Shown here in pieces: positions 16,296 through 59,680 of a stretch of 64,000 nt of DNA. A program made the translations under genes and the position numbers. The notes beneath the pieces were generated by a model. That model had not been told where the DNA came from and did not search any database. It was given only the letters and a program-made list of their open reading frames with translations. Source of the DNA: Dipteris shenzhenensis (Eukaryota). The DNA lies in assembly GCA_047967505.1 (NCBI GenBank), contig CM106538.1; one strand, 5' to 3'. Position 1 is the first letter of the stretch. Every line of letters starts with the position of its first letter.

Positions 16296-16337
<42 letters not shown>

Positions 16338-16345
<8 letters not shown>

Positions 16346-18444: not shown

Positions 18445-19289
18445 CTATACTTATAAAATCACAACATAAGTTGCAAGAAAATATATTAACAGTTATAAAA
18501 TAGCATCTATGAGCTTCCCTTCAACTTAAAACAAAAAGTGTCTTAAAGCGTCGCTATATAGCAACGTTTTGCTCTGTTCCATCGCTATATAGTGACGAAA
18601 AAGCATCGCTATATAGCGATGCTGTGGGTTAAAACCGAAACTCGACGCTATGCATGGCACTTTCTTTAGCACTCTCTAATCTTTCAAGTAAGCAAGGCAA
18701 TCTCTCCTCCCACCTATTTCTGATGACCTCCCACCTATTTTCGACAACCTCCCACTCTATTCTCTACTCCTCACCCTTCTCCTAGCTCTTGTGCTCCCTC
18801 TCCACCCTTCTCCCTCTTTAGTTTATTGAAAGGAAGTTTTTCAAGAGGTGAGTCTGTTTCAACAATGTAGGTTATTTGTTTGTTAGCTTTAGTTTTTTGA
18901 ATGCTTCTCCTTGTATTGCTAAACCTGTAAACTAGTTTTCATGCTTGTTTTCAAAGGATTGAAACAAAAAATGAGATTTTAAGAAAGAAAGAAGACTCAC
19001 CTCTTCTTTCCCTTTTTTGTATTTCTCTTTCTTCTCTTTCTTCTTGTCTCCTCAATCTCCTCCTTTCAAGAAGTTACTTTTGTAATCTCCTCCTTCCTCT
19101 AACATCTTATTTGAAAAATGCTATGTTTTCTCTCTTTTGTAGGGCCACTCCACAACACCGAGCGGGATGTACTATTTCAGATAAGTGCTTTCTCTTTTTT
19201 CCATTTGCTATTTTTGTTATTTGCATTGGCCTATAGCTAATGCCTTAAGCGCTAGCTACAGTGATGGGCGTAGGAACCCTCTCTTCGCC

Positions 19290-23087: not shown

Positions 23088-23618
23088 TAGTAGTAGTTTG
23101 CATTTTCTTTGCCATGTATGTCATTTTGTATATCTGCTCATTTGAGCAATTTTGTATCACCCTTTCGAAAGAATAATTTTGTAACAAGCAATGTTGTATA
23201 TGTTCGACATGTATATGCTTTTGTTGCTCGATCATTTCATTTGAGCGATTTTGTATCACCCTTTTTGCAAGGGAAATTTTGTTACAAAAGGATTTTTTTT
23301 ATAATTACAAAAAAAAAAAGGATTAGTGGGGCTAAACAGGGCCATAGCAAGCCCTGTTTAGCCCACTAATCCTTTTTTTTCAGTTCTATTAATCATTGCT
23401 ATATAGCCACATCTACTAGTATCGCTATATAGCGACAATTATCAGTGTTGCTATATAGTGATGTTTATCATCATCGCTATATAGTGACGCTCTATAGCGA
23501 CAGTTCTTTTACGATGCTTTTAACGACTTTAATAACGACATTTGTGTCCGTGAAAAAAAAAATTTTAATGTAAAAAGCATCAATATTTTCATCGGAAAAG
23601 GGCCTATGTCTTGTAGTA

Positions 23619-36300: not shown

Positions 36301-36571
36301 TCATTCCACATCATCAGCCATGTGATCACACAATGCCACCTTGGCATACCTCCTCAACCTTGCCACGTCACCAATCCCTCCACCTCAATTTGCCATGTCA
36401 ATCTACCACCTCATGAATGCCAAATCATCATGCCACATCACCTTTCAATGTCATCGAAGAGGCCCAGTACCACATCATGACCATGTAAGAAGAGACTATA
36501 TTACCACATCATGACCATGCATGGTGCCACATCAGCCAAATGTATACACATGATGATGTGCGAGGCATACA

Positions 36572-36727
36572 ATACCTCGATCGAGGTATATAACCTGGGT
36601 GAGGCATACAATACCTCGTTCGAGGTATGTGACCGAGGACACCTAGAGATACCTCGATCGAGGTTCATACATACATGCGCAATGCACTGAATACCTCGAT
36701 CGAGGTATGAGGTCTGATCAAGGTATA
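36572..36727. repeat. Cluster of the 18-bp palindrome ATACCTCGATCGAGGTAT upstream of the transposase TATA box
   Basis: About five copies. An equivalent cluster lies at ~46100-46290 in the inner element. Confidence 0.9.
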
Positions 36728-36950
36728 TGATCGGGGCTCTGGGCATAGCAGACCTCTCCACCAAAACTAAGCCAATTAGTATCAATCTTAGCACCTCTCC
36801 ACCAATAATAATGAAGAGCAATCTAAGAGCAATCTAGTGGATGAGTTGAGGCTCTCTATAAGACACCACGTTTTGGTTCATTTCACCCATTCTTAGCCAT
36901 TCTTGCCTCCTCATCACTTTGTCACACCTTCCATCCTACTTTCATTAAGA

Positions 36951-39848: not shown

Positions 39849-40179
39849 CACATTACATATCATATTTTTTGGGATCATCAGTTGATCAGATTGATTTTTA
39901 TTGGGTATCACTAGTTGATTACACTTTTTTGTATTCGATATGTATAGGCTCACTGTGTGACCGTACCATTGTAATTTTCATGGACTCATATTTTGTATTT
40001 CACTATGATGGCTGTATACACGTTCATACACATCATTGTATTAGATTCTATTTTTAACATGATGTCCGATGTCTTCTCAATGGGATTTGTTGTGTTTGTA
40101 ATACAAAAAATTGTTTATTAGTAGTAATGTTGTAATTTGTTTTGTGCTTTAGGACATTTTAAAAACGTGACTAAGAAAA

Positions 40180-41900
40180 TTCGCGCACGTACTAACGAAA
40201 TACGCGTGTGGACTTGCTTGTTGGGGATGAAACTTCGCACGACTCTTAGGCCACCCTAGACATACATCCACGCGAGATTTGGTCTGAATTGATTTGGTAT
40301 GCGCCACGTGGAAGGTACAATGCGTACATTTTTACAATCCCTACTAGCACTCGTGACTACGTATGAGCTATGGCGCATGTACTAACGAAATGCGCGTGTG
40401 GACTTATCTGTTGGGAATGAAACTTCACACGACTCTTAGGCCACCCTAGACATACACCCACGCAAGATTTGGTCTCCAACTTATTTGGTATGCGCCACGT
40501 GGAAGGTATAATGCGTACATTTTTACAATCCCTACTAGCACGACTACGTGTGAGAAATGGCGCACGTACTAACCAAATATGCATGTGGACTTATCTGTTG
40601 GAGATTAAACTTCGCACGACTCTTAGGCCACCCTAGACATACATCCACGCGAGATTTGGTATGCGCCACGTGGAAGGTACAATGCGTACATTTTTACAAT
40701 CTCTACTAGCACTCGTGACTACGTATGAGCTATGGCGCATGTACTAACGAAATGCGCGTGTGGACTTATCTGTTGGGAACGAAACTTCGCACGACTCTTA
40801 GGCCACCCTAGACATACATCCACGCAAGATTTGGTCTCCAACTTATTTGGTATGCGCCACGTGGAAGGTATAATGCGTACATTTTTACAATCCCTACTAG
40901 CAGGACTACGTGTGAAAAATGGCGCATGTACTAACCAAATATGCATGTGGACTTATCTGTTGGAGATTAAACTTTGCACGGCTCTTAGGCTACCGTAGAC
41001 GTACATCCACGCAAGATTTGGTCTCCAACTGATTTGGTATGCGCCACGTGGAAGGACAAATGCATACATTTTTACAATCCCTACTAGCACGACTAAACCC
41101 TAAACCCTAAACCCTGGACCCTAAATCCTAAACCCTGCTGGGCACGAAACTTCACACGCCTCTTAGGATACCCTAGAAGTACATCCACGCAAGATTTGGT
41201 CTCCAACTGATTTTGTTTGCGCCACGTAGAAGCAATCCCTACTAGCACGACTAAACCCTAAACCCTAAACCCTAAACCCTAAACCCTAAACCCTAAATCC
41301 TAAACCCTGTTGGGGACGAAACTTCACACGCCTCTTAGGCTACCCTAGATGTACATCCATGCAAGATTTGGTCTCCAACTGATTTGGTTTGTGCCACGTA
41401 GAAGCAATCCCTACTAGCACGACTAAACCCTAAACCCTAAACCCTGGACCCTAAATCCTAAACCCTGTTGGGGACGAAACTTCACACGTCTCTTAGGCTA
41501 CCCTAGACGTACATCCACTCAAGATTTGGTCTCCAACTGATTTGGTTTGCGCCACGTAGAAGCAATCCCTACTAGCACGACTAAACCCTAAACCCTGGAC
41601 CCTAAATCCTAAACCCTGTTGGGGACGAAACTTCACACGCCTCTTAGGCTACCCTAGACGTACATCCACGCAAGATTTGGTCTCCAACTGATTTGGTTTG
41701 CGCCACATAGAAGCAATCCCTACTAGCACGACTAAACCCTAAACCCTAAACCCTAAACCCTGGACCCTAAATGCTAAACCCTGTTGGGGACAAAACTTCA
41801 CACGCCTCTTAGGTTACCCTAGATGTACATCCATGCAAGATTTGGTCTCCAACTGATTTGGTTTGCGCCACGTAGAAGCAATCCCTACTAGCACGACTAA
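40180..41900. repeat. Internal satellite (~180-bp then ~120-140-bp monomers) with (CCCTAAA)n telomeric tracts
   Basis: Monomer core GAAACTTCRCACG.CTCTTAGGCYACCCTAGAC.TACATCCACGCAAGATTTGGTCTCCAACTGATTTGG. TAAACCC runs start at ~41094, 41252, 41424, 41582 and 41733. Confidence 0.95.
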
Positions 41901-44249
41901 TCCAAAATCTCACATGTAGTAAAGAAGATTGTGCATGATACGGATTGGGTGAAGTATAACATCGAAGTGCATGCATTTTTGCAAGCACCTTTTCAATGCT
42001 TAATGTTTACAATTACGACACACGGCATTATTTTTAAAATACATTATGTATTAGACGTGTGAATTGAGATATTTGAAATTCAAAATCATACTCTTAATTT
42101 TAAATACGCACATGGGGATGAAACTTTGCACGGCTCTTAGGTTTAGTGTAATAATTGCAAGCATTGATATATACGAAATTCAATATGATAAAGTTGGAAC
42201 TTGAACATGACCAGCGTTAGATATCAATTGTCACAAAATCACCTATAGTCAATATTATTTTTAACATCTTGAAATTTACAAGACCAAAGTAAGTGTAAGA
42301 GGGAGAAATTCACTAGCATAGCCACACCAACCTTTTCCTTTTACATAAACCAAACACCAACACTTTCCCTTGCACCAACTACCAATCCTTTCTCTTGTAC
42401 GTAAACCACCAAATCCAAAAGAAAGTAGTGAAATTAAATGGTGGGCTAACATGCCACACCTTTCTTGTACTCCCATACATGTTAGTGTACCACCAAAGTC
42501 AAAAGAAAATAGTAAAATTAAATTGTGGCCTAACATGTCACACCTTCCTTGTACTCCCATACATGAGTAGAGTTTAAGAGGGAGAAGTGGGATTGTTAAT
42601 ATGTGTATATTTTTTTGGTGCATAGCCACAACAACCCTTTCTTTTTACATAAACCAAATACCAACACTTTTCCTTATACCAACCGCCAATCCTTTCTCTT
42701 GTACATAAACCACTAACTAAATGCAAAAGAAAATAGTGAAATAAAATGGTGGGCTAGCATGCCACACCTTCCTTGTATTCCCATATACATGCATTAATTG
42801 CCAATTGTGTTGATTTCTCTTCTTTATGTTCATTATCTTTTATACATGCATAATAATTAGATTGGTGCATTGGCAAATGTCATATTAAGGAAATTAAAAT
42901 AGTCCTTAGAAACTTGGAAGGCATATGCGATTGTCATTTGGAAGGCACATGTGATTGTGGTTCGAATATGACAAATAATTAGGTCTTGTTTTCTTTGATC
43001 ACCAATTAGCACAAGTATTGTTAACAATAAGAGACAAATTAAACACTGAGTCATAATAAATAACAGCAAAATCATGCAAAGGACAAGTCTAACTCCATTT
43101 TTGAAAAAAATCCCCAAAAATTTTATATTTTGTAAAAATTGTAGGGACAAAATATACGCTTCATGTCAATAATATTAAAAAACTAGAATTGTGAAAAAAG
43201 AATGCATAAAATATTACTTATATTTTATTGCAGAACCTAAAAATGTCTAGTATTATCATTTGCAAAAAGTATTCTCTCCTTTAATTTAAAAAACATGACA
43301 AATTGCAAAGGAGAAGAAACTGCTTCATTCAACTAAGAGAGTTGCTAGAGCTTTTTCTTTGAAATACCAATTGTTTTCTATGCAAGTGCCCATATCAAAT
43401 CCATATACAAGAATTTCTACACCCTACAAACTAAGCATGTCCACACATTGGTGATTTCTCGAATTTTTTCCTTTTGTCATGTTGTTTAAGTATCTCTAGA
43501 TCACACATTCCCTCAAGTTCATTGGTGTTGAAAGAATTTTTTATCAATTGATTTACACATAGGTAACAACATTGCCCTCGGAGTCATGGATAAGTTTTGT
43601 ACCAATATACATTTCTAGAATACTTTTTGTAAATAGCATAAATTGAAAGTTGGTAAAATTGATGTTACTTTAATATCTAATTTCATTTGATGAAACAATT
43701 TTACATTGGGCTATGGCATTGTCTAAAAAAAGTAATTTTCTTTTTATACAAATTAGTTTATCAAATGGTTGAATTTCAACATATTTTGATATTAAGATGG
43801 GAAGGCTAGATTTGGAAGCATGAATATGACAATAGTTGTCTTTTTGAAAAATTGATGAAAATTTGGATTTTGAAACACACTTTATTGACAAACATGAATA
43901 GAATAAAATTTTTGTTTAAAAAATGAAAAACTTTTATCAGCAAAATAAAATTTTCATCCAAAAAAAGATGAATTTTGATATGTTTAATGTTTAATGTTTA
44001 CAATTAATGTTTAATGTTTACAATTACTTCACATGGCATTCTTTTTTAAATACCTTATGTATTAAACAAACTATAAACTGAGATAAACTGAGATAAACAA
44101 AGTGTGAAGAACATCATGAAAGTACGAAAATGCTCATACATCATAAAAGTGGGAACAATATCATGAAAGTACCAAAATGAATCTGTACATCATCATCATC
44201 ATGCTGCAAAAGTGCATCCCTATACAAGAAACGTGTGAAGCCTAAACAA

Positions 44250-44842
44250 TCAATCTAAATCCGAATCTGATAACTCTACATATGATCCTCTAGTGGAACG
44301 CTGACGTGGCTCCTGTATGACCCGCTGCCCAACCGTCCGCTGTGTGCCCTCAGGCAAAGCTAGCTCAGATGGGCCAGCCTCATCACCTGCATGAGATGGG
44401 CCAGCCTCATCCTGATGAAGAGGAGGGCATGCTGCACGCGCCACTGCTACCATCTCTGCCTCCCTCGCCTCCTCTATGTACGCGCGTCTCAGCTCCCATA
44501 GCCGTGCATCTGCGAATACTCGTGCCTCAAATCGAGCGCGAGTAATCATCTCTACATGTGAAAGACGTTGGTCTCGGCCCCGCCCTAGCTGCTGCTCCAC
44601 CCACTGCTGCAATGATGTCTGCAGCTCTGTCTCTCGCTCAATCCGGCGTGCCTCCTCCGCTCGTGCCTCGTCACCTGGCATGAAATCACCGTACGAAAAG
44701 CGTCGTGGAACGCATGATGCAACCACCGATGTATCCGCACCCTCCTGCATCAGCAACGCTCTCTGTGCCTCCTCCCTGTAGTGCTCTGTCAAGACTACAC
44801 GGGCGAATGGATCAACAGCCTGACGATGACCAGGATATAGAT
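44250..44842 (-). pseudogene. Outer-copy RING gene, 3' part (split by the inner element)
   Basis: ORF 44250-44792 matches 51663-52260. It joins 57152 across the AGAT TSD. Confidence 0.88.
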
Positions 44843-46477
44843 GGGAAGTAGCAAGCTAAGGGTGTCCACTTTTTGTTCACTCCCCAATCCTTAGGAGGTG
44901 GAAAAACAAGCTTTTTAGCACACAAAAATGCAAATCTCACCTACTTCCCTATGGATCTAGTCTTTGAAGTCTTCTGACACAACATCACACTTGCTATTGT
45001 GCACACAATCGTATAGTCTGATCAAAAATTCGATGCACACACAAAAAATTTCTTTGTGTCACACGGCATGGTTCCAGGGTGGTCACACGTTTGTCACGAA
45101 CAGAGAGTATCATATTAAATTCTAAATTTCTCACTAATTTTAGATTAAATGTTATTGAAACTTTGTAAGTGGTCTCTTTGCATTATGTAGAGCTTAACTT
45201 GATTTATTGGTAATTTTTTGAATGATTTATCTAATTATAAATAATTATTTATAATAAATAAAGTCATAAAATACATGCATTTTAGTAGCACACCACATTT
45301 TTTTAATATTTTGAATAATTAAGCAAATCCAATTTGGTGGAAGGTTAGTAGGCACATAAGGGTGTGTGGTTGAATCATTAAATCCCAAATCCAACGGTTA
45401 GATTTAGGAAGATTGAAGTTTAATTTTTACTTTTACTCCTTAGAGGATCAACAAAGAATATTAAAAATAAATCTAGTAATTCTCAAACATGACTAAACAT
45501 TTCAAAAATGTCAATATTTTTAGTCCTCTGCATGATGAATAAGAGGAAAAAATTTTGGTTAAATTTGAGTAAGGGAAACGTACAATATGGCCTCCAACGA
45601 TGAAATCTCCCTTTTGTGGGGGAAAAAGGGCCACCCAAGCCTAATACCAAGACAAGGTAGGCTTGGTTAGGTAGGCTAGGAGCATCATTGACCCTAGTGG
45701 CAAGCCTTTGGAGTCTGCATGCTGCCCATGCGGAAGGCTGAGTCATCAAAACCATGCCACGTTGTTAGACCACGTGGTGCCATCTCATCAAGGAGATGTG
45801 ACATCACTCCTTGCCATGTCACCTTACATTGCCACACGTGCTGCCACATGTGCCACCTCATCATTCCACATCATGAGCCATGTGATCACACAATGCCACC
45901 TTGGCATACCTCCTCAACCTTGCCACGTCACTAATCCCTCCACCTCAATTTGCCATGTCAATCTACCACCTCATGAATGCCAACTCATCATGCCACATCA
46001 CCTTTCAATGTCATGGAAGAGACTATATTACCACATCATGACCATGCATGGTACCACATCAGCCAGATGTATACACATGACGATGTGCGAGGCATAGAAT
46101 ACCTCGATCGAGGTATACGACCTGCATGAGGCATACAATACCTCGATCGAGGTATATGACCGAGGACACCTAGGGATACCTCGATTGAGGTTTATACATG
46201 CGTAATGCATTGAATACCTCGATCGAGGTATATGGTCTGATCGAGGTATATGATCTGGGCTCTGGGCATAGCAGACCTTGATCGAGGTATTTGAAGGTAC
46301 AAAACTTAGCCAATTAGTTTCAATCTTAGCACCTCTCCACCAATAATAATGAAGAGCAATCTAGTGGATGAGTTGAGGCTCTCTATAAGACACCACGTTT
46401 TGGTTCATTTCACCCATTCTTAGCCATTCTTGCCTCCTCATCACTTTGTCACACCTTCCATCCTACTTTCATTGAGA

Positions 46478-49400
46478 ATGGGTTCTCAAAGCCGTAGAGC
46501 TAGTAGACGTGAAAGATGTAGGAACCCCCCCCCAAATCTCATTGACGAGGAGCGCAAGCGGAAGGCTTGTGAGCGCAAGAGAGCCTCTAGTGCTCGAGCT
46601 CGCGCTGCCACCACTGATCCACCTCCAACTCTACCTCTACATCCCACCTCCACCCCCACCTCCACCCCCACCCCCACCTCCATTGTCCCCCCATCCTCAT
46701 CCGCTCCCCTACCTCTAGCCTCCGCCCTTCCCCTAGCCACCTACATTTTGGCCTCCACCTCTACCTCTTCCCCCTCCACCCTCCCCCCTCCCCCTCCCCC
46801 TCCCCCTCCCCCCGCTCCGCTTGGCGCCTCCCTTCCCCCGTCCACCCTACCATCTCCCATTGATCCCCTAGCCCCACCTTGTAGCAGCAGTGTTGCTTCA
46901 CGACATGACTTGCCGAAGTCCACTATCCATCGTCGTACTAGCAAGATTGTGCAGTCTTTTTTTGGTGACCTCACGCCAGCTTCACAGTCTTCTCTTCTCA
47001 CGTCCCTGATTGATCACCCTGACTTGGTAGAGTGTAGGAGGCTTGCTGGTCTTGGTGCACGTAGAGATAGGGTTGTATCTAGCAAGGTCCTTAGCAGTGT
47101 TCGACGTTCCTATGCTTCTATTAAGCATAGGAACTCCAGTGATGCCTTGGCAGCACGTCGTGCTATTGTGGCTGCCATTAGTAGACCTCATATGATAGGC
47201 CATGTGCATACCGCTTCACGTCTTCTTCAGATTGCACCGCGCACATTGCGAGCAGGCATCATTAGGAGGCAGAGTCTAGAGGATAGTGAGACTGATGCTC
47301 TTTGGGCTTTGAGTGGTCGTGCACCTCGCAGCGATCGATTGTTGGATGATTCCACTAGGTCCTTCATACAACAGTTTTGGGAGGAGCATTGCAGAGCATC
47401 CTCGGTGTTCAAGAAGGCATTGCAGAAGAGGGTGTCACGCGGTGTGTACATTGAGCATGGTGCATGTTTTTTGGAGTGTACCCAGACTGAGTTGTACACT
47501 CAGTTTGTAGAGGCGCACTTGGAGTTCAAGATTGGGCAAAGGTCATTTGAGCGATGCAGGCCATGGTTTGTGCGATGCTCTCAAGAGTGTGACACATGCT
47601 GTTGCCGCTACCATGTGGATTTTGGATTGATGTATGACGTATTCCGTTCCCTTGATGGTCATAGGGGAGTGGTTCCTACTAGCCCTTGCGACTTCATTCA
47701 TTCCATATTGTGTACACGAGATGGTGATGCTTTATTCCACTCCCTTGATTGTGTGGAAGGCATGTGTACTTTGTGTGGTGACTTTGCTAGAGTGCCATGA
47801 GTTGCACTAGATACTTGTAATGTGCCCCGGGGGATTCACTCTTAGTACAAGGGGGACGTCACCTGCATGCATCAACTTCAAGAAAACCCCCAATATATGG
47901 TCCATGTAACATAATAAAACACCCCTATTTAAGCTTATAAGGATACCACCAAAAGTAGACTATGTCCCCCCCTTCCTTAAATCTATGTTCTTTCTCAATT
48001 ATTTGGATTACATCATAAGAAAGTTCAGATGACATAGATTAGACCATCTTCAAATATTCACCAATGGGTAGTATTGATTTGTTTCCCTACCATGGCCTAC
48101 ATTTAGCTATAGCTCAGGCTTAGTTCATGCGCAATTGGTACATGACCGATTGTCGCTAGTCAAATGTGTATGTGTGTGTGTAATTTTTATGTTTAGGGGG
48201 TAAAAACTTGTATTTCCCTATACCCCTCCCTCTTCCTCCCCAAAGATGTCAAGGCCCCCTAACTTAAATTTAAGATTGAGAAAAATTAAAAAGGGCCCCC
48301 ACCCCTAATGTATAAGCTTATGCCTCATCTCAAAAAACCCCCCTATTGTACACTCACGTGATATCATAAGTTTCCCCTTGTGAATCCCTCGGGTGATGTG
48401 CAGATGGTTTGTTGGCAGCAGTATGAGTACTGTACCTTGACATTAGATGGTGGTGCATAGTCGAGGAGGTTGCAGCTTGTGGGGAAGGAGACACCACGTG
48501 TTGTATTCATTGATAGTTTTCGAGGGAAGCTGTACCGCTACATATGCCACTCGCACAATGCAAAATGGGAGGATCGTCAGTTCCGTGCATGTTTGAGGAC
48601 ATTTCCTACAGGGGTGGTTGTCTTAGTGGTGGACTTTGTAGAGAATTACACCTTTGCACCACAGCATGAGATCCAATCGGAGTATTATTTCTCCGAACAG
48701 GTGACGTGTGATTGAGTATTGATTTTTTTCCCGCCTCATTATATTGAATTATTTCAATAGTCATGTTTTTTTTCAATGCTATATTGCAGGTTGCTATATT
48801 TGTGCACATTAGCTATCGTCATGCACAGGCTCATGTGGATGGCATTGATAGCACCATGGACTCACGCGTCATTGTGCGAGAGTATCACTTCTACATTAGT
48901 GATGATCGATTGCGTGATGCCCATTTTGTGCAGCATTGCTTCACTTTGCATGATAGTTTCTTGAGGGATCATGGTGTCACATGGCAGCGGCGCTGGATCT
49001 GGTCAGACAGCTACGGTGGTCAGTTCAAATCCGCTAGACAGTTTTATTGGTTCTGCAGATGGCACCGTGAGACAGGCATTCCGATCACATGGAGCTACTT
49101 CGAGACAGGGCACGGTAAGGGAGAGCACGATGGTGCAGGTGCTTGCGTGAAGCGTGCTTTGCGTCGATACCAATTGTGTCACAGTGCCGATCGCTTCAAG
49201 GATGCACATGATGTGGTGCGGTGGTGCAGCCCAGCACTTATCCACTAGTGCTACCTCCTCGTTTCAGTCGCGTGACGATAGGGTGGTGAGCCGATATTTT
49301 TGGTGCGTGGACATTGGGAGTCTTGATCGGTCTAGGCCTTTTGATTGTCGTTCTGTGCCTGGCACTCTTGATTTCCATTCCATCAGGAGCATAGGTGAGT

Positions 49401-49990
49401 CTCACCCCGTGATCTTTTATCGACGGTTTGCATGTTTTTGCTCTGCATGCATTGATGATGATTGGGGAGGGTGCTCCATCATACCATGGGCCGATCCATG
49501 GGTACGGCGAGTGCTTTCTCCCTTCCAGCCTTGGGAGGAGGTACATGATGATCAGGATGCGGGATTCAGTTCCTCTAGAGATTATGACTAGCTTACAGAT
49601 ATTTTGCGTATTGGTGATATCTTCACGGTTATTGCTTCGGAGGGCAATGAGGAGGGTGTGGATTATTACTTGTTGCGATGCTCTATGCTGAAGAGTGTGC
49701 TGAATGAGGATACAGTGGATGGGCATGGGATGCACTTCAATGCTCATAGCATGATCATAGGTGGCCACTATTTTCAACAGATACAGAGGCGTGGTCGCTA
49801 TATTGAGTTCCAGGAATACATGGCGGATCAAGAGACATACATGTATTCTCATCTTGTTGTTGGGATCAAGATTACTTTGAGTCGTGTTCACACTCGCAAG
49901 GCGACGTCCACTCCACGATGGCGCCTTGCAGTGGCGGATCACGAGAGCATACTTGCAACTATTGGCATGAGAGCTGATCCTGAGGAGTAG
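46478..49990 (+). pseudogene. Sola2-like transposase, inner copy (intron 48701-48789; MITE-disrupted)
   Basis: Highly similar to 36951-39848. Stops at 47798, ~48458 and ~49589, and a frameshift near 49228. Confidence 0.88.
47826..48393. mobile_element. MITE (CCCGRGGGATTCAC TIR family), 568 bp
   Basis: TIRs are CCCGGGGGATTCAC and GTGAATCCCTCGGG. The 8-bp TSD is TAATGTGC/TGATGTGC. It is absent from the outer transposase (~38260). Confidence 0.93.
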
Positions 49991-50319
49991 CACATTACAT
50001 ATCATATTTTTTGGGATCATCAGTTGATCAGATTGATTTTTATTGGGTATCACTAGTTGATTACACTTTTTTGTATTCGATATGTATAGGCTCACTGTGT
50101 GACCGTACCATTGTAATTTTCATGGACTCATATTTTGTATTTCACTATGATGGCTGTATACACGTTCATACACATCATTGTATTAGATTCTATTTTATAC
50201 ATGATGTCCGATGTCTTCTCAATGGGATTTGTTGTGTTTGTAAAACAAAAAATTGTTTATTAGTAGTAATGTTGTAATTTGTTTTGTGCTTTAGGACATT
50301 TTAAAAACGTGACTAAGAA

Positions 50320-51110
50320 AATTCGTGCACGTACTAACGAAATACGTGTGTGGACTTACTTGTTGGGGAAGAAACTTCGCACGACTCTTAGGCCACCCTA
50401 GACATACATCCACGCGAGATTTGGTCTGAACTGATTTGGTATGCGCCATGTGGAAGGCACAATGCGCCCTAAATCCTTAACCCTGCTGGGGACGAAACTT
50501 CACACGGCTCTTAGGCTACCCTAGACGTACATCCACGCAAGATTTGGTCTCCAACTGATTTGGTTTGCGCCACGTAGCAGGTATAATGCATACATTTTTA
50601 CAATCCCTACTAGCACGACTAAACCTTGAACCCTAAATCCTAAACTTTGTTGGGGATGAAACTTCACACGACTCTTAGGCTACCCTAGTCGTACATCCAC
50701 GCAAGATTTGGTCTCCAACTGATTTGGTATGCGCCACATGGAAGGTATAATGCGTACATTTTTACAATCCCTACTAGCATGACTAAACCCTAAACCCTAA
50801 ACCCTGAACCCTAAATCCTAAACCCTGTTGGGGATGAAACTTCACACGGCTCTTAGGCTACCTTAGACGTACATCCACGCAAGATTTGGTCTCCAACTGA
50901 TTTGGTATGCGCCATGTGGAAGGTATAATGCGTACATTTTTACAATCCCTACTAGCACGACTAAACCCTAAACCCTGAACCCTAAATCCTAAACCCTGTT
51001 GGGGATGAAACTTCACATGGCTCTTAGGCTACCCTAGACGTACATCCACGTAAGATTTGGTCTCCAACTAATCTAGTTTGCGCCACGTGGAAGGTATAAT
51101 GCATACATTT
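50320..51110. repeat. Internal satellite with telomeric tracts, inner copy
   Basis: Same monomer as 40180-41900 with fewer copies. TAAACCC runs at ~50620, 50784 and 50962. Confidence 0.92.
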
Positions 51111-51662
51111 TTTCAAGCACCTTTTCAATGCTTAATGTTTACAATTACGACACACGGCATTATTTTTAAAATACATTACATGTATTAGATGTGTGAATTG
51201 AGATATTTGAAATTCAAAATCATACTCTTAATTTTAAATACGCACATGGGGATGAAACTTCGCACGGCTCTTAGGTTTAGTGTAATAATTGCAAGCATTG
51301 ATATATACAAAATTCAATATGATATTCAAAATGATAAAGTTGGAACTTGAACACTTTTTCAATGCTTAATGTTTACAATTACTTCACATGGCATTCTTTT
51401 TTAAATACCTTATGTATTAGATGTGTGAATTGAGATATTCGAAATTCAAAATCATACTCCTAATTTTAAATGTTTATGTTACATTTAAACAAACTATAAA
51501 CTGAGATAAACAAAGTGTGAAGAACATCATGAAAGTACGAAAATGCTCATACATCATAAAAGTAAGAACAATATCATGAAAGTACCAAAATGAATCTGTA
51601 CATCATCATCATCATGCTGCAGAAGTGCATCCCTATACAAGAAATGTGTGAAGCCTAAACAA

Positions 51663-53608
51663 TCATCCTGAATCAGAATCTGATAACTCCACATATGATC
51701 CTCTAGTGGAACACTGACGTGGCTCCTGTATGACCCGCTGCCCAACTGTCCGCTGTGTGCCCTCAGGCAAAGCCGGATCAGATGGGCCAGCCTCATCACC
51801 TGCATGAGATGGACCAGCCTCATCCTGATGAAGAGGAGGGCATGCTGCATGCGCCACCGCTGCCATCTCTGCCTCCCTCGCCTCCTCTATGTATACGCGT
51901 CTCAGCTCCCATAGCCGTGCATGTGCGAATACTCGTGCCTCAAATCCAGTGCGAGTAATCATCTCTACATGTAGAAGACGCTAGTCTCGGCCCCACCCAA
52001 GATGCTACTCCACCCACTGCTGCAATGATGTCTGCAGCTCTACCTCTCGCTCAATCCGGTGTGCCTCCTCTGCTCGTGCCTCGTCACCTGGCATGAAATC
52101 ACCATATGAAAAGCGTCGTGGAATGCACGCTGCAACCACCGATGTATCAGCACCCTCCTGCATCAGCAACGCTCTCTGTGCCTCCTCCTTGTAGTGCTCT
52201 GTCAAGACTACACGGGCAAATGGATCAATGGCCTGACGATGACCAGGATATATATCATCCATGCCTAGTCCTCTATATGTGGCCACATCAATGTCAGCAA
52301 AGCATACAGGGCACACTTATCATGCCACCATGTGGCGGGTCATGCAATGGAGATGTGCGATGTGGCCGCACCCTAGTCCAAACCACCCTACGGTGTCAAA
52401 CTCCTCGTGGCAAAGGACGCAAGTGGCAGTAGGAAGCCTGGCTATGACTGCTGCGTCTATGGGTGTCCTAGTCGGCACATCTACAGGAGGAGCAGGGTAT
52501 AGGGCCACACTGGGGTCGAGATCCTATGGCGAGATGGATCACGACTAATATGCCTCAGCTGCAAAATATAGTGCTCCGCACGATGGTATGCTATGCGTGT
52601 CCGAATCCTCTGCTCCTCCAAATCTGTCTGCAACAGTCGTACACGAGACTCCATCTCCTGACGCAATAGATGTGCCTGCAATGCAAACATGTCGCATACA
52701 TGGTGAGAATTAACCAAAAAACTTCAGTTCAAAACACGCTACAAAAAAATAAACTAACATAATCAAAATAACTAATGCGTACAGCCTCCAACTCTGCAAT
52801 CCGTGCGTCTCGAGCCTCCAACTCGTGCTGAGGCGGTGTAGATGTGGGAGGTGGTGTAGATGTGGGAGGCTCCATCGATGATCAAGGTGGGGGAGGTGGA
52901 ATCGAAAGTGATCTCGATAGGGCAGAGACCATGTGCTACAAGGATGATGCCACTGAATGAACATCCCCCCTAATCTGTCCTCCAACAGCTCGCAATGCCG
53001 GTGCAGGGATGGTGTGCAACTCTGGTGCCTCGCGTCGACACCGAACACCTGCAATCTGACGCTCCTGACGCCCCATCCTACCATGTCCCGCTCTTGATCC
53101 TAGACGGGTACTAAGGTAGTCTACCCGATGACCAAGCACAAACTCAGCATATAGCTGCATGGCAAATGACCTGGCTATCTGACGGTTGTGAGGCAATCGA
53201 CCACCATTCGCAACGAGATATCTCGGATAAATGTGTGCTGCTATGATGGGGTGCCTACAACGTAAAATATGCAAGGGGTCGCATCGCCTGAGTGTGACCA
53301 TCCCAAAACATATCCTCTAAGGCCTGCCTGTGATGTGACTCACGCTCAAACAACTGTCGAATGGCTCTCCAATCCAAGCCACCACCAGTGATCTCTGCCT
53401 CAGCCTGTGCCTGAAAGCTATCCACAATGTCCTCAACTGTGTCCAATCGACCCAGAGCCTCAATAACTGAATCTAGACTCGCAACCAAGTGAGGGGGTGC
53501 CCTAGCATCCTGCAGTGCCCTCATCTCAGCTCTCAGCATCTCTATCTGCATACGAATAGTGGTGCTAGAACCTGTGCGCTGGCTAGTGCATGCACAAAAA
53601 AAACACAT
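51663..53608 (-). pseudogene. Transposon-borne RING-H2 finger protein gene, inner copy
   Basis: CVLCHEEFDTVGWFGLGCGHIAHLHC-x10-CPVC fits C3H2C3. A coiled-coil-like segment lies upstream and there is an intron near 52680-52775. Stops and frameshifts are present. Confidence 0.82.
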
Positions 53609-54499
53609 GGAAATTAATATTCTATTTGGGTAATGAAAATAATATTCTATTCAATATGACTTATAATCTATTTACGTAATGAAAACTATTTGTACGTACT
53701 CCTTGATGAGGTAGGATGTCATTGGGATCATCCTATGCACCTACCGGTAGATGGGCCAAATGTTTGGCTCAATATTATGTTTATCAAACTCAATATTATT
53801 AAAAATTCTTAATTTTGATTAAAATTTTTTCAAACTCTAGTTGTTGCATTTTTAAACTTAGATGTCTCAAATATTTTTTCCTTATATGTTTCCCTTTTTT
53901 TACTTTTTATCCAATATGAAACTTTTCCACATGTGGTGTAAGGACCACATTGTCCACTTATGGCCCCTATACTAAGGACAGATAGTGGAAAGGTTTGGTT
54001 AATAAGACCTTCTTTGAATGCTTTACTGCCTTGGGTTTGCAATAGATATGGAGGAGATAGAAGGATACCTAATACATTACTTTGAACGATACACAAGCAA
54101 GGCGCATCTAGTATTTCTCGGACTACACATTAAAAAAGAGAGCGGGTTGACACTACAGACCTTTTAAAGCGAGAACTTTGAGAAAATAATTAAGCCTTTT
54201 CAATATTATCTATTTTGGTTGGGCAATCCACCTCAACTAGTGGCCATTCTTATAGATCATCACTTGGTTCCCATGCTTGGGGAGAGAGGAGACCTTTGGA
54301 CAATCATAAATTACGTATGTGTTTTCGATGCGCTGGTGCATTTAGAAGATCCAATTAGCCATACGCTTATGCATCTAACCACTCTAGTGTTGGGGTCTTT
54401 GCCCATGTGGTGTGGTGTTTTAGGGATAATGCCCATGTGGTGTTTTATACAGCCTACTTACTCTACCTAAATTATGAAACAACTCTTAACCAACTATAT

Positions 54500-56260
54500 A
54501 ATCTATAATATTCCACATAAAAGATGATTTTTTGAAAGATGGTTTTGAAGACTAAAATTTAAACGTTTTTTTATTTAAATAAAAATAGCACCAATTTCAA
54601 AAATAGCATAAAACCTACTTTAATCTCTCTTTTTCTTGTTCTTGTTTTCTTGTTTTCTTGTTTTTAATACATGATTTTTCTATTTTAACAAAATTCTTAT
54701 TTTCTTGTTCTTGATACATGATTTCTAAAAACAAAATTTAAACGTTATATTAAATTCAAAACTTCAGTAATTTGTAAACTTCACTTATAAATTTTTTTTA
54801 ATAGATTATTTTAAAAAATAAATTACATACTTTTTGACATTTAAATAAAAACTTCACTAACTTAAACTCTTATTTTCTTTTTTTAAAAAGATCATTTTTA
54901 AAAATAAAATTTAAACATTTTTTTATTTAAATATAAATAACACTAATAAAAAAAATATCTTTAATCTCTTTTTTTTAAAAGATGATTTCAAAAAACAAAA
55001 TATATACATTTTCAGGCTTTAAATAAAAAATTACGTAATTCCAAAAATAATTTAAAAAAACTTTAAAATGCATTTCAAATTTAGAAATATTTTATAATTA
55101 TTCCTATAAACTAAAATTTAAACGTTTCTTTATTTAAATAAAAATAGCACTAATTTAAAAAATAACTTTAATCTCTTTTTTTTAAAAGATGATTTTAAAA
55201 ACAAAATATTTACATTTTCACATTTCTAATAAAAAATTACGTAATTCAAAAAATAATTTAAAAAAACTTTAAAATGCATTTCAAATTTAAAAATATTTTA
55301 TAATTATTCCTATAAACTAAGATTTAAACGTTTTTTATTTCAATAAAAATAGCTCTAATTTAAAAAAATAACTTTAATCTCTTTTTTTCCAAAGATGATT
55401 TTTAAAAACCTAATTTTTACATTTTCACATTTTAAATAAAAATTTAAAATGCATTTGAAATTTGAAATATTTTATAATTATTCCTATGAACTAAAATTTA
55501 AACGTTTTTTTATTTAAATAAAAATAGCTCTAATTTAAAAAATAACTTTAATCTCTTTTTTTTCAAAGATGATTTTAAAAAACAGAATTTTTACATTTTC
55601 ACATTTTGAATTAAAAATGTCATAATTCAAAAATTTTAAAAAAACTTTAAAATGCATTTCAAATCTAAATATATTTTATAATTATTCCTGTGAACTAAAA
55701 TTTAAACATTTTTTTATTTAATTAAAAATAGCTCTAATTTAAAAATAACTTTAATCTCTTTTTTTTCAAAGATGATTTTAAAAAACAGAATTTTTACATT
55801 TTCACATTTTGAATTAAAAATGTCGTAATTCAAAAATTTAAAAAAAACTTTAAAATGCATTTCAAATTTAAAAATATTTTATAATTATTCCTGTGAACTA
55901 AAATTTAAACGTTTTTTTATTTTAAAAAAAATAGCTCTAATTTAAAAAATAACTTTAATCTCTTTATTTTCAAAGATGATTTTAAAAAACAATAATTTTT
56001 ACATTTTCACATTTTAAATTAAAAATGCCGTAATTCAAAAATTTAAAAAAAATTTACAAATGCATTTGAAATTTAGAAATATTTTATAATTATTCCTATG
56101 AACGTTTTTTTATTTAATAAAAATAGCTTTAATTAAAAATTTTTTTTTTTCACATTTTAAATTAAAACTGTCGTAATTCAAAAATTTCAAAAAAACATTA
56201 AAATGCATTTGAAATTTAGAAATTTTTTATAATTATTCCTATAAACTAAAATTTAATTAA
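54500..56260. repeat. Very AT-rich tandem array, ~185-bp unit, roughly 8-9 copies
   Basis: AAAATGCATTTCAAATTTA..ATATTTTATAATTATTCCT..GAACTAAAATTTAAACGTTTTTT recurs. Present only in the inner element. Confidence 0.9.
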
Positions 56261-56407
56261 ATTTTAGCAAAAAAAAATGCTACATAAAAAAAACCCTACT
56301 TGGACTCTCCCGCTCCGTCCATCTCTGTCGATGTCCGTCGGTCGCTCTCCGTCGCTGGCGCAATTCCGTCGACGTCCCGCAAATCCGAAATCGGTCAATG
56401 AGGAAGA

Positions 56408-57051
56408 GCTCGATCGAGGTATGCAGAATGAGGGGGGTCACTCTCCTTTTATAAGAAAATTTAGGGTTTCCCTACCTTGATCGAGGTATTTCGCATGCAA
56501 CATACATATCAGATCAAGGTATAGACATGCCACGATATCTCGATTGAGGTATTTTGACATGCCCATACATCTCGTTACATCTACCTCGATCGAGGTATAG
56601 ACATGCCACAATACCTCGATCGAGGTATTGTGACATGCCCATACATCTCGGTACATCTACCTCGATCAAGGTATTGACATGCCACGATACCTCGATCAAG
56701 GTATGTCGGCAGCAGCCGGATGCCACATGTCTCGATTGACGTATTCGACATGCGGCCAAGTCATCGGTCCAACATACCTCGATCGAGGTATGTCATCTGC
56801 CCTGTCGGATGGCACATACCTCGATCGAGGTATGCTGGACATGCCACATTACCTCGATCAAGGTTTAGCTGGATTGCCAGGATACCTCGAACGAGGTAGA
56901 TGTGGCATGTATAGGTGGCTTGCCAGCAAACCTCGATCGAGGTATAGGCTCGGTCCGATGAAAAAAGCCCAGCACCTCGATCGAGGTATTGGCTTGGCTC
57001 GGTTGTCCTCGTGTGTGATTTTCATTGGAACTAATACCTCGATCGAGGTAT
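56408..57051. repeat. Right subterminal cluster of TACCTCGATCGAGGTA palindromes (inner element)
   Basis: More than a dozen exact or near-exact copies spaced ~30-50 bp apart. Confidence 0.93.
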
Positions 57052-57151
57052 TGCAGACGAAGCAAAACCTTTGTATTTTCACTCGAGCGGGTGTCACACT
57101 CACCCGAAAGTGGTCCGGAAGTGGACACCCTTAGCTTGCTACCACCCAGAT

Positions 57152-58528
57152 CATCCATGCCCAGTCCTCTGTATGTCGCCACATCAATGTCAGCAAAGCA
57201 TACAGGGCACACTGAGAACGTGCCACCATGTGGCGGGTCATGCAATGGAGATATGCGATGTGGCCGCACCCTAGTCCAAGCCACCCTACGGTGTCAAACT
57301 CCTCGTGGCAGAGGATACAAGTGGCAGTAGGAAGCCTCGCTATGACTGCTGCGTCTATGGGTGTCCTAGTCGGCACATCTACAGGAGGAGCAGGGTATAG
57401 GGCCACGCTGGGGTCGATCCTATGGCGCGATGGATCACGACTAATATGCCTCAACTGCAAAATATAGTGCTCTGCGCGATGGTATGCTATGCGTGTCCGA
57501 ATCCTCTGCTCCTCCAAATCTGTTTGCAACAGTCGTACGTGAGACTCCATCTCCTGATGCAATAGATGTGCCTGCAATGCAAACATGTCGCGTACATGGT
57601 GAGAATTAACCAAAAAACTTCAGTTCAAAACACGCTACAAAAAAATAAACTAACATAATCAAAATAACTAACCTCGTCCCTAGACTCGGCCAACAATGCC
57701 TCCAACTCTGCAATCCATGTGTCTCGAGCCTCCAACTCGTGCTGAGGCACCGTAGATGTGGGAGGTGGTGTAGATGTGGGATGCTCCATCGATAATCGAG
57801 GTGGGGGAGGTGGAATCGCAATAGATCTCGATAGGGCAGAGACCATGTGCTGCAAGGATGATGCCACTGAATGAACATCCCCCCTAATTTGTCCTCCCAC
57901 CACTCACAATGCCGGTGTAGGGATGGTGTGCAACTCTGGTCCCTCGCGTCGACGCCCGAACACCTACAATCTGACGCTCCTGACGCCCCATCCTACCACG
58001 TCCCGCTCCTGATCCTGGACGGGTACTAAGGTAGTCCACCCGATGACCAAGGACAAACTCAGCGTAAAGCTGCATGGCAAACGACCTGCGGTTGTGAGGC
58101 AATCGACCACCATTTGCAGCGAGATATCTCGGATAAATGTGTGCTGCTATGATGGGGTGCCTACACCGTAAAATATGCAAGGGGAGCCCTGATCGTGGTC
58201 GCATTGCCTCGGTGTGACCATCCCAAAACATATCCTCCAAGGCCTCCCTGTGATGTGACTCACGCTCAAACAACTGTCGAATGGCTCTCCAATCCAAGCC
58301 ACCACCAGTGATCTCCGCCTCAGCCTGTGCCTGAAAGCTATCCACAACGTCCTCAACTGTGTCCAATCGACTCAGAGCCTCAATAACTGAATCCAGGCTC
58401 GCAACCAAGTGAGGGGGTGCCCTAGCATCCTGCAGTGCCCTCATCTCAGCTCTCAGCATCTCTATCTGCATACGAATAGTGGTGCTAGAACCTGTGCACT
58501 GGCTGGCGCATGCACAAAAAAAACACAT
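57152..58528 (-). pseudogene. Outer-copy RING gene, 5' part
   Basis: ORFs 57884-58528 and 57131-57613 match the inner copy (CILCHEEFDTVGWLGLGCGHIAYLHC...CPVC with a 2-nt frameshift). Confidence 0.85.
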
Positions 58529-58649
58529 GGAAATTAATATTCTATTTGGGTTATGAAAATAATATTCTATTCAATATGACTTATAATCTATTTACGTAAT
58601 GAAAACTATTTGTACGTACTCCTTGATGAGGTAGATCCTATGCCCATAC

Positions 58650-59219
58650 ATCGATCGAGGTATTCTTGACATGCCCATACATCTCGGCACATCTACCTCG
58701 ATCGAGGTATTGGCATGCCACGATACCTCGATCGAGGTATTCTTGACATGCCCATACATCTCGGTACATCTACCTCGATCGAGGTATTGCCATGCCACAA
58801 TACCTCGATCGAGGTATTGTGACATGCCCATACATCTCGGTACATCCACGTCGATGGAGGTTTTGACATGCCACGATACCTCGATCGTGGTATGTTGGCA
58901 GAAGCGGGATGCCAAGTCATGTGTCCAGCATACCTCGATCGAGGTATGTCATCCGCCCTGTTGGCTGCCCTGTCGGATGGCACATACCTCGATCGAGGTG
59001 TGCTGGACATGCAACCTGACCTCGATCGAGGTTGAGCTGGATTGCCACGATACCTCGAACGAGGTAGATGTGGCATGTATAGCTGGCTTGCCAGCAAGCC
59101 TCGATCGAGGTAGAGGCTCGGTCCGGTGAAAAAGTGCAGTACCTCGATCGAGGTATTGGCTTGGCTCGGTTGTGCTCGTGTGTGATTTTCATTGGAGCTT
59201 ATACCTCGATCGAGGTATT
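58650..59219. repeat. Right subterminal cluster of TACCTCGATCGAGGTA palindromes (outer element)
   Basis: More than a dozen copies, colinear with 56480-57051. Confidence 0.93.
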
Positions 59220-59315
59220 GGAGACCGAAGCAAAACCTTTGTATTTTCACTCGAGCGGGTGTCACACTCACCCGAAAGTGGTCCGGAAGTGGACACCCTT
59301 AGCTTGCTACCTCCC

Positions 59316-59680
59316 GCAACTAAAATTAAAAGCATAAGTCCTTCCAAAGTAAAGTAGTTCATGCAACTAACAAATTTACATCCTAGGTCTTTCCAAAGAC
59401 ACCTAAATATTTCATACGACTAAAATTAAATCCTAAGTTCTTCCAATGTAAAGCATTTCATGCAACTAGCAAATTGACATTTAGGTCTTTCCAAAGACAC
59501 CTAAAATATTTCATACAACTAAAATTAAAATCCTATGTCTTTCCAAAGTAAAGTATTTCATGTAATCAACTATTTAAAATCGTAAGTCTTTCCAAATACA
59601 CTTAAAATGTTTCATGCAACTAAAATTAAAATCCCAAGTCTTTCCAAAGGCACCTAAAATGTTTCATGCAAGTAACAAAC
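59316..59680. repeat. ~60-bp tandem repeat in hAT G (target of the outer Sola2-like copy)
   Basis: Unit TTCATGCAACTAAAATTAAAATCCTAAGTCTTTCCAAAG. A degenerate counterpart lies at ~34200-34470. Confidence 0.85.

Follow-up and report, generated by a model that had tools for sequence, protein, structure and literature searches.

That DNA transposons of plants encode accessory proteins is well established, and captured and re-used host domains are the source of many of these proteins (PMC13547354, PMC12973397; statements taken from the literature, here and below, rest on excerpts of the papers cited). The locus described here raises the question of whether a gene for a RING-H2 protein, enclosed in a DNA transposon of Dipteris shenzhenensis, is such an accessory gene or a random captured fragment. 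The gene lies in a stretch of 64,000 nucleotides of contig CM106538.1 (assembly GCA_047967505.1), the whole of which we call the window. An initial annotation, made from the sequence alone, had suggested that it may be a dedicated accessory factor. Its fixed position, its complete open reading frame (ORF), the selection on it and its distant relatives bear this out in so far as the RING gene is a real component of the transposon, formerly open and selected; it is carried, however, as a lineage-specific acquired module.

The RING gene and its selection

Self-BLAST comparison of the window and inspection of the ends of the matching segments revealed two copies, A and B, of one DNA transposon (Table 1). 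In both of them the RING gene, made of two exons with about 600 codons, occupies the same position and orientation inside the terminal inverted repeats (TIRs), convergent to the transposase gene. In copy B it runs on the minus strand from an ATG at 53608 to a stop at 51665-51663, and the N-terminal motifs quoted in the initial annotation (HPIIAAHIYPRYL... and FAMQLYAEFVLGHRVDY) are present there. The predicted protein consists, in this order, of a helical N-terminal region specific to the family (hereafter the N-domain), a Pro-rich linker, a charged heptad-like stretch that continues across the intron, a linker containing ...SVALYPAPPVDVPTRTP..., the RING-H2 domain and, at the C-terminus, some 200 residues of charged sequence that end in ...SYVELSDSDSG. 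This tail had been called acidic, a description that suits its last ~8 residues and two DEAGPS repeats but not the rest.

The C3H2C3 RING proved to be a canonical one. In copy B it reads C-x2-C-x13-C-x-H-x2-H-x2-C-x10-C-x2-C, with both the order and the spacing of the ligands as they should be. A search of the six-frame translation of the window with the full RING-H2 pattern, C-x2-C-x(9-39)-C-x(1-3)-H-x(2-3)-H-x2-C-x(4-48)-C-x2-C, found it once, and 100 shuffles did not produce it at all. All eight ligand codons and the Cys-Pro-x-Cys are kept in both copies; in copy A a +2 shift separates the first six ligands, which share a frame, from the last two.

It had also been claimed that both copies encode this spliced gene. 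The gene, its intron and its convergence to the transposase are indeed there, but neither copy encodes a protein any longer, and that of copy A is split by copy B; the RING gene of both window copies is a pseudogene. Copy B has six in-frame stops (codon starts 52938, 52884, 52322, 52319, 52007 and 51983), two of which (TGA and TAA) fall inside the RING loop. It has also lost 14 nt near 53278, gained 2 nt near 52521 and lost the GTAAGT splice donor in an 18-nt deletion. Copy A has one stop (TGA at 57906), a +1 frameshift near 57957, a +2 frameshift near 57220 and a 9-nt in-frame deletion in exon 1, and is cut by copy B 20 codons past the last RING cysteine. When the two genes are aligned (2,208 aligned positions, 94.7% identity), the six stops of copy B read CAG, CGA, CGT, TCA, CAG and CAA in copy A, and the stop of copy A reads CGA in copy B. 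Since every stop is private to one copy, their common ancestor had an open RING-gene frame. The indels are likewise private to one copy, as judged against contigs of two public DNA runs (X2 and X3). With the private lesions disregarded, the RING gene is a complete, two-exon ORF from ATG to stop.

The contigs of X2 and X3, placed on 51300-53777, come from public DNA runs in which about 31% of the 31-mers of the stretch are present. A contig of 2,865 bp from X3 and overlapping contigs from X2 cover the whole RING gene. Their mean word depth of ~340-400, in runs of only 1.6-2.6 billion letters, is not a copy number; we read so high a depth only as a sign of many near-identical copies collapsed together. 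Of the 87 positions at which the X3 contig and copy B disagree, most are A>G and T>C, which means that the T/A state is on the side of copy B. The contigs have kept the 14 nt lost in copy B, are without its 2 added nt, have an A-like insert at the splice donor and show sense codons at three of the stops of copy B (52318, 52007 and 51983). Among the substitutions listed (40 of 86), 39 fall inside the A-B alignment, and the contig agrees with copy A at 31 of these. The family consensus is likely to be nearer to an open frame than either copy, and an open consensus ORF is likely. No RNA run appeared among those sharing 31-mers with the stretch, and two RNA-seq runs under the same species label gave no reads on 51300-53800 among the 10.2 and 12.9 million records read, which is no test of expression or splicing.

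The comparison of the two copies also carries a signal of selection. Over 581 codons, the Nei-Gojobori method counted 47 synonymous and 49 non-synonymous differences (pS 0.111, pN 0.037), and the resulting non-synonymous/synonymous divergence ratio (dN/dS), for A versus B only, was 0.32 and not near 1, the value that the initial annotation had named as speaking against it. Because methylation-driven transitions could skew dN/dS, the observed transitions were reassigned randomly among the sites of their own class (defined by C>T or G>A and by CG, CHG or CHH context) as a control for bias. The RING gene showed 35 synonymous, 36 non-synonymous and 5 stop-creating transitions, against expectations of 20.9, 48.6 and 6.5 (P=0.0002). 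In two shifted frames the test for a synonymous excess gave P=0.98 each, so the signal belongs to the frame of the RING gene. It comes mainly from exon 2 (P=0.0008), with P=0.06 for exon 1. Stops occur at about the neutral expectation, which indicates that the divergence mixes selected change in active lineages with later neutral decay. Judging from these substitutions, the RING protein was under purifying selection while the transposon family diversified.

As for the transitions themselves, differences between the RING genes of A and B affect 17-25% of CG sites, 7-13% of CHG and 2-3% of CHH, and this bias towards CG and CHG is what silenced repeats would be expected to show after plant-type cytosine methylation. 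An apparent paradox, namely that the RING exons diverged far more than the intron and the flanks, was dropped, since the flanks are AT-rich with few CG or CHG sites and the 6 differences in 367 nt of flanks and intron are compatible with the non-CpG rate in the exons.

Relatives, donor and association with the transposase

HMMER, run exhaustively over 1.84 billion representative proteins with the 228-residue N-terminal ORF of copy A, returned four proteins (P0002-P0005), with E values of 2.6e-14, 5.9e-12, 4.0e-7 and 6.1e-5 and identities of 34-57%. They are open ORFs of 187-258 amino acids (aa) on contigs of at most 8,859 bp, their clusters of 3, 2, 5 and 1 members all come from Logan or ENA assemblies, and none is named or annotated as a host protein. 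The alignment spans all of exon 1, and a set of six sequences (copy A of the window, P0002-P0005 and the cluster member P0008) has 23 invariant columns. The ORFs of the relatives continue into '...VHT...' apparently where the intron of the window gene begins, as if a gene caller blind to introns had read through it. That they are preserved at about 40% identity speaks for long-term constraint at the protein level. Exon 2, used in a word-index search, found one protein, P0013, with 64% identity across the linker, the RING and TYRGLGMDD. P0013 keeps these elements in the same order, several of its RING cysteines have become Tyr (TGY to TAY), and it is another decayed copy, heavily C-to-T.

Word-index protein searches with the N-domain, at near and longer lengths, gave no match; the method missed relatives that the exhaustive search found, so that its blanks are weak. 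The protein atlas had no usable match to the N-domain, and of the pattern matches obtained with the N-domain alignment in a metagenome scan (97) and in a viral-contig scan (31), none was real.

These results bear on whether there is a gene at all. The ORF pieces and the Cys/His pattern could in principle be chance features of GC-rich transposon DNA, where both copies are full of stops and frameshifts, and the Pfam scores below cut-off and the two low-confidence structure models given in the next section would suit such a view. We find it hardly credible, since the synonymous excess is specific to one frame and absent from the shifted ones, the stops are private to one copy each, the splice sites are canonical, relatives exist at 34-64% identity and the RING-H2 pattern was never met in the shuffles. 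For practical purposes, the N-domain relatives, the frame-specific selection and the private stops refute it.

No annotated plant protein matching the N-domain or exon 2 was found in any protein search, including that of the 1.84 billion representatives, a result that speaks against donation by a conserved host gene. A near-identical donor, which the initial annotation would have counted against an accessory role, did not turn up either: neither the N-domain nor exon 2 had a near-identical protein match in the same collections. This last result suggests that the collections are without the repeat ORFs of this species, so that a lineage-specific donor could be missed. Pack-type capture is recognised by a host paralogue of high identity and by a fragmentary or chimeric piece, and here the ORF is complete and no host-like match to the N-domain or exon 2 was found in these collections.

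In order to describe the company of the gene, we use the relatives of the transposase. A metagenome scan with a 160-residue piece of the transposase yielded 49 loci with relatives at 32-62% identity in the core; the transposase match is at E<=1e-5 in 48 of the 49, and the sequence downstream is at least 2.0 kb long in 21 and at least 3.6 kb in 18. Against these 49 loci (405,356 bp), tblastn with nine pieces of the RING gene and its relatives gave no match at E<=1e-3, and none at E<=10 came from a hidden Markov model (HMM) of the N-domain; the RING-H2 pattern was absent from them as well. A constant pairing of the gene with this transposase, which had been put forward as a check, is thus contradicted, the N-domain being present in 0 of 49 loci. 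The absence of the RING gene beside relatives of the transposase makes it a lineage-specific acquired module and not a part of the core of the transposase family.

At some of the loci, other sequences accompany the transposase. One locus, represented in two metagenomes (L033/L034), has on its minus strand, at 18649-18837 (18649-18981 when taken more widely), a decayed sequence in which a heptad-like part precedes a partial RING-H2 of the form ...C-x2-C-x13-C-G-H-x2-H-x2-C-x3-H-V-V-S, with six ligands, the same unusual His for Trp as in the window gene and no canonical last Cys pair. It is convergent to a transposase ~30% identical to that of the window, 7.6 kb downstream of it, and its match to the RING gene (E=0.005 by tblastn and 0.002 by HMM, with 6e-6 in the pairwise comparison and 0.024 for Pfam) does not suffice for a call. 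Two further loci, with transposases 41-44% identical to that of the window, have convergent second ORFs on the minus strand: L019 at 3686-5302 (539 aa) and L016 at 3769-4524 (252 aa). Both have long poly-Glu/Asp runs, that of L019 has a C-terminal coiled-coil-like part, and neither has a RING or any similarity to the RING gene. With other second ORFs or none in the relatives, the 3' slot of this transposase family holds varying second genes.

Within the window, divergence between A and B is 4.9-7.1% in the RING exons and 6.6% in the 3' subterminal region, compared with 2.2-3.4% in the transposase exons, at similar GC content. Transversions are ~4x commoner in the RING exons (29 in 1,764 nt, versus 10 in 2,463 nt in the transposase). 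For the two copies compared, this suggests a mosaic history, in which the 3' module (the RING gene plus the 3' end) of A and B comes from more distant sublineages than the 5' module.

A host RING-H2 gene could also have been captured whole and be riding along as a passenger, like the transduplicates of Pack-MULE or CACTA elements, with a selection signal that stems from the history of the donor or arose through gene conversion with a functional paralogue in the host. The absence of the gene at 48 of 48 related-transposase loci, apart from one weak RING-like lead, would agree with this, and so would the greater divergence of the RING exons and the 3' end, which could reflect exchange, and the apparent lack of this organism's proteins in the databases, in which a lineage-specific donor would go unseen. 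Accessory proteins of transposable elements also arise often by capture of host proteins (PMC13547354). However, the ORF is complete, brings a start, a stop, an intron and flanks of its own, and occupies the same position in both copies, and not one annotated plant protein among 1.84 billion representatives matches its N-domain. Its sole relatives, unnamed ORFs on short contigs and one C-to-T-decayed copy, are what repeat-borne genes look like, and the synonymous excess lies between two copies of the transposon, which needs selection inside the element unless conversion is invoked. We therefore judge a mere passenger decidedly unlikely. Capture and later use by the element do not exclude each other, and a dedicated accessory and a captured gene are not exclusive alternatives.

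Possible functions of the RING protein

The nearest cellular counterparts of the domain are ubiquitin ligases. With phmmer, 53 PDB sequences matched at E<=1, and the named ones were almost all RING-type E3 ligases, the best being synoviolin (5e-4) and RNF38 (1.4e-3), followed by RLIM, RNF8 and Arkadia; all eight ligands align. With synoviolin/HRD1, RNF38, RLIM and Arkadia the RING protein shares the order and spacing of the ligands, which are identical, the CGH..H..C core and the CP.C. It differs from these cellular ligases in that the E values are only 5e-4 to 4e-2, in two residues discussed below, and in its N-domain and tail, which have no counterpart in them; no transmembrane or known substrate domain is present here.

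Structure prediction added little. The AlphaFold2 model of the N-domain, from a 6-row alignment, is all-helical and of low confidence (mean pLDDT, the predicted local distance difference test, 57.6). A Foldseek search of the PDB with this model found no match at E<=0.001, the best having E=0.9, which leaves the N-domain without a fold assignment. For exon 2, modelled from 4 rows as a read-through with X, the mean pLDDT was 41.8, too poor for use. A complex prediction with residues 110-511 of the transposase and the N-domain scored 0.00 in a run without controls, which is no verdict on binding.

On balance, we infer from these sequence features that the RING gene acted in trans for the element, its product being either a RING-type E3 or a RING scaffold; an accessory protein of the E3 type is the reading that we favour, with moderate probability. 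The RING domain would recruit a host E2, the heptad stretch would drive oligomerisation of the protein, and the N-domain would select a substrate or partner. Host chromatin or silencing factors would be the preferred class of targets and the transposase or the transposition complex the second choice, and the protein would serve as a counter-silencing factor, in a role analogous to that of VANC or of viral RING ligases such as ICP0. That it ubiquitinated silencing proteins, chromatin or the transposase, as the initial annotation proposed, can only be inferred.

Several observations count against this picture. The transposase, submitted to the same test over 821 codons, shows no significant synonymous excess (21 versus 17.4 expected, P=0.17), and the selection signal in the RING gene rests on two copies only. 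Among these two window copies and the contig differences listed (40 of 86), no intact RING gene was directly seen. The Pfam scores, 23.8 bits for zf-RING_2 (PF13639) and 24.0 bits for zf-RING_5 (E=4-6e-5) and 18.8 bits for zf-rbx1, are under the gathering cut-offs of 27.3, 27.9 and 31, a shortfall that may come from the X residues placed at the two loop stops of the read-through used as query. None of 48 distant transposase relatives has the RING gene at its side; this gene was acquired, its donor is possibly a host gene outside the databases, and the failure to find a host donor is weak evidence for this species. Finally, the Trp of synoviolin and RNF38, four residues after ligand 6, is a His here (CMTRHM), and the Arg that follows the last Cys in those ligases is a Phe (CPVCF), which is also found in the decayed relative P0013.

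The Trp position and the 'linchpin' Arg/Lys help to bind and activate E2~ubiquitin, and either residue, the Trp or the Arg, is missing from many RINGs that are active. The hydrophobic E2 contacts of active ligases also include an Ile, Leu or Val after the first Cys; here C-V-L-C and C-P-V-C are kept. With His and Phe at these positions, the ligase activity may be weak, dependent on a partner or absent; from its sequence, ubiquitin-ligase activity is plausible, not assured. An alternative is that the RING-H2 and the heptad stretch form a zinc-stabilised scaffold for interaction or oligomerisation, which would aid the transposase without ubiquitin transfer, through nuclear import, end binding or complex assembly, as MURB, En/Spm TnpA or the Myb-like ORF2 protein of Harbinger do. 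The two replacements relative to active RING-H2 ligases, with the Phe recurring in P0013, speak for such a scaffold, and the convergent acidic or coiled-coil ORFs without a RING at L019 and L016 suggest a 3' slot that holds interchangeable partner proteins. There is also the precedent of MURB, which binds the N-terminus of MURA (PMC12973397). Against a purely non-enzymatic protein stand the conservation of all eight metal ligands and the Cys-Pro-x-Cys, and the fact that the closest solved relatives are active E3s; moreover, there is no positive sign of transposase binding. The absence of Trp or Arg from many active RINGs also takes weight from the replacements. We consider the scaffold without ubiquitin transfer unlikely, though still deserving of some weight.

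To return to the accessory factor acting in trans, a more specific form of it would have a Sola-type plant transposon encode its own ubiquitin ligase, the N-domain recruiting a silencing or chromatin factor, or a SUMO-modified one, and the RING-H2 marking it for degradation. The ...YVELSDSD end presumably resembles a phospho-regulated SUMO-interaction motif. We give this specific form little credence; if it were true, the protein would be an analogue, in a transposon, of viral RING ligases such as ICP0 of herpes simplex virus (HSV) and, among the counter-silencing factors of transposable elements, the first of the E3-ligase type, and the RING-like stretch of L033/L034 would point to an old, recurrent partnership.

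The element and its place among transposons

The positions of the two copies, their ends and their genes are given in Table 1. Excising copy B together with one AGAT joins 44842 to 57152, and the joined sequence equals, bar one mismatch, the uninterrupted 52236-52275 of copy B; the point of insertion lies in the second exon of copy A's RING gene. The 22-nt core of the TIRs occurs exactly four times in the window, twice per strand, and not once in 100 shuffles. TIRs, target site duplications (TSDs) and the match to the empty site together show that the transposon family was mobile in the past, made 4-bp TSDs and jumped into a copy of itself. Copy B, though the younger insertion, lies further from the high-depth contigs, with 31 of the 39 checked differences private to it.

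Table 1. Features of the two nested transposon copies (positions in the window)
Feature	Position	Strand	Remarks
Copy B, whole element	44843-57147	+	12,305 bp; self-BLAST, ends, empty-site comparison
Copy B, TIRs (29 bp)	44843-44871 / 57119-57147		27/29 positions complementary
Copy B, TSD AGAT (4 bp)	44839-44842 / 57148-57151		Perfect
Copy B, transposase gene	46478-49990	+	Broken by 567-bp insertion (47826-48392) and frameshift
Copy B, RING gene exon 1	52783-53608	-	Helical N-domain, Pro-rich linker, start of heptad-like stretch
Copy B, RING gene intron	52683-52782	-	GT..AG, phase 0, ending TTGCATTGCAG
Copy B, RING gene exon 2	51663-52682	-	Heptad-like stretch, RING-H2, charged helical region, S/D-rich end, stop
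Copy B, RING-H2 motif (C3H2C3)	52302-52421	-	Two stops in loop between ligands 6 and 7
Copy A, overall span	35271-59315		Interrupted by copy B
Copy A, left part	35271-44842	+	5' TIR, transposase, tandem repeats, 3' part of RING gene
Copy A, right part	57152-59315	+	5' part of RING gene, 3' subterminal region, TIR
Copy A, TIRs (29 bp)	35271-35299 / 59287-59315		28/29 positions complementary
Copy A, TSD GCAA (4 bp)	35267-35270 / 59316-59319		
Copy A, transposase gene	36951-39848		2 W-to-stop changes, frameshifts
Copy A, RING gene exon 1	57673-58528	-	
Copy A, RING gene intron	57579-57672	-	Consensus GAG/GTAAGT donor
Copy A, RING gene exon 2, first part	57148-57578	-	Up to copy B insertion; RING-H2 codons about 57319-57195
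Copy A, RING gene exon 2, remainder	44250-44842	-	Intact 197-codon tail and stop

The copies differ in their non-coding blocks. Between the 5' end of the RING gene and the 3' subterminal repeats, copy B has an AT-rich block of 2.8 kb (53715-56511, 21% GC) with tandem repeats of ~200 bp at 54902-56256, and the counterpart in copy A is just 66 bp long (58635-58699). Contigs of X2 and X3 extend, with loose ends, into B-like sequence past 53777. The block probably belongs to the full element and was lost from copy A by deletion. Tandem repeats of ~160-190 bp stand between the 3' ends of the convergent genes at 40183-41900 in copy A, which has more units, and at 50467-51116 in copy B, and copy A has an additional 1.9-kb block (42190-44083, 30% GC). 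The subterminal regions (36501-36833, 46028-46360, 56438-57134 and 58700-59315) contain short degenerate repeats, which read YLDRG or TSIEV when translated and are candidate binding sites for the transposase. In the transposase exon of copy B, the inserted 567 bp have imperfect inverted ends (CCCGGGGGATTCAC... and CCGAGGGATTCAC...), are flanked by an 8-bp duplication (TAATGTGC / TGATGTGC) and look like a miniature inverted-repeat transposable element (MITE) of the hAT type.

Outside the two copies, the window holds the remains of other transposons, namely an ORF with the hAT-associated DUF659 (14799-15455, E=2.9e-9) and one with the CACTA-associated DUF4218 (28947-29471, E=4.4e-9). Inverted repeats of 1.1 kb, 91% identical (16328-17417 / 21998-23097), flank a tandem array (19289-21410) with strong negative GC and AT skew (-0.33 to -0.37) and long spurious ORFs in several frames.

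The pieces of the transposase had no Pfam match and no match among PDB sequences, and in the protein atlas it matched unnamed animal clusters only; for DUF7869, the only Pfam lead from that atlas (score 0.82), no paper was found. The gene has an intron at ~38571-38650 (A) and ~48705-48789 (B), inside a conserved ...SEQ/V.IFVH... motif (the slash marks the intron), and it is confirmed by four aligned metagenome relatives that are continuous across it. When these four are aligned with the two transposase pieces of the window, VDFAENY, (H)W(I/V)WSDGC..QFK and GHGKG.HDGAG are conserved, three acidic motifs that give a candidate D-D-D triad. A search for TIRs with 4-bp TSDs around 24 long loci with transposase relatives revealed no convincing pair, and the TIR core of the window occurs in 0 of the 49 loci.

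Ginger, which needs an rve integrase, and Kolobok and piggyBac, which use TTAA, were set aside among the superfamilies with 4-bp TSDs. According to the literature, Sola elements have a DDD transposase, TSDs of 4 bp and TIRs that vary, and they are seldom met in flowering plants (PMC10741241); their RNase H-like domains are stated to have no Pfam match (PMC5751038). The TSDs of the two copies (GCAA/GCAA and AGAT/AGAT) and their 29-bp TIRs agree with this description. From the 4-bp TSD, the DDD-like triad and the lack of a Pfam match, we infer that the element may belong in or near the Sola superfamily.

Among known elements, the Sola2-Fanzor1 elements of dictyostelids offer a parallel in layout, as they share a 5' transposase part and have entirely different 3' parts with a second gene (PMC3627910). 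The element of the window resembles Sola and Sola2-Fanzor1 in its 4-bp TSDs, its short to medium TIRs and its large transposase without a Pfam family (888 aa in DFa-2), and it too has a 3' module that is more diverged between copies than the 5' module. In contrast, its cargo is a RING-H2 protein and not a TnpB-like Fanzor nuclease, its TSDs are GCAA and AGAT where AT-only ones are reported for those Sola2 families, and its host appears to be a plant.

Other comparisons concern the cargo. VANDAL elements are Mutator-like and have 9-bp TSDs. VANC of the Arabidopsis VANDAL elements is, like the RING protein, a lineage-specific non-transposase protein inside the TIRs of a plant DNA transposon (PMC5735166, PMC10398659, PMC13547354), and VANC-like accessory genes are thought to act in trans, to evolve fast and to be probably host-derived (PMC13547354). 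As portrayed in these excerpts, VANC is, unlike the RING protein, a sequence-specific DNA-binding protein related to MAIN/PMD, without a RING-type zinc finger. VANC is anti-silencing, and any likeness of the RING gene in role would be one of analogy. The Ulp1-like domain (Peptidase_C48), recurrent among the non-transposase proteins of active elements (PMC12973397), provides in KI-MULEs and other plant TIR elements a further case of an enzyme domain of the ubiquitin/SUMO system in an extra, transposon-borne ORF. As a cysteine protease, it takes a ubiquitin-like modifier off, whereas a RING promotes attachment, and the two have no sequence relation. The RING of RAG1 has E3 activity. This N-terminal RING links the domain to a lineage of DDE-type cut-and-paste recombinases, Transib/ProtoRAG (PMC1131882, PMC4411706); unlike the separate convergent RING-H2 gene of the window, it is fused into one polypeptide, is of the C3HC4 type and belongs to an animal, domesticated protein. 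The word 'RING' has no occurrence in the main text of two atlases of plant transposable-element proteins (PMC12973397, PMC13547354), whose supplementary tables, or Repbase, could list one. Literature searches gave nothing relevant either. The main texts searched contain no description of a stand-alone RING-H2 accessory gene, nor do they mention an accessory gene of any kind for a Sola-like plant element.

Accessory genes of DNA transposons are few and lineage-specific, and their function is mostly obscure. The known examples from plants work by DNA binding (VANC), as deSUMOylation-type proteases (Ulp1-like) or by binding the transposase (MURB), and a selected, stand-alone RING-H2 gene would add a ubiquitin-conjugation arm to these functions. 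The nested self-insertion documents the 4-bp TSD and the past activity of the family, and the ~600-residue protein, with its separable N-domain and RING, would be a handle on how a rare Sola-like plant element handles its host.

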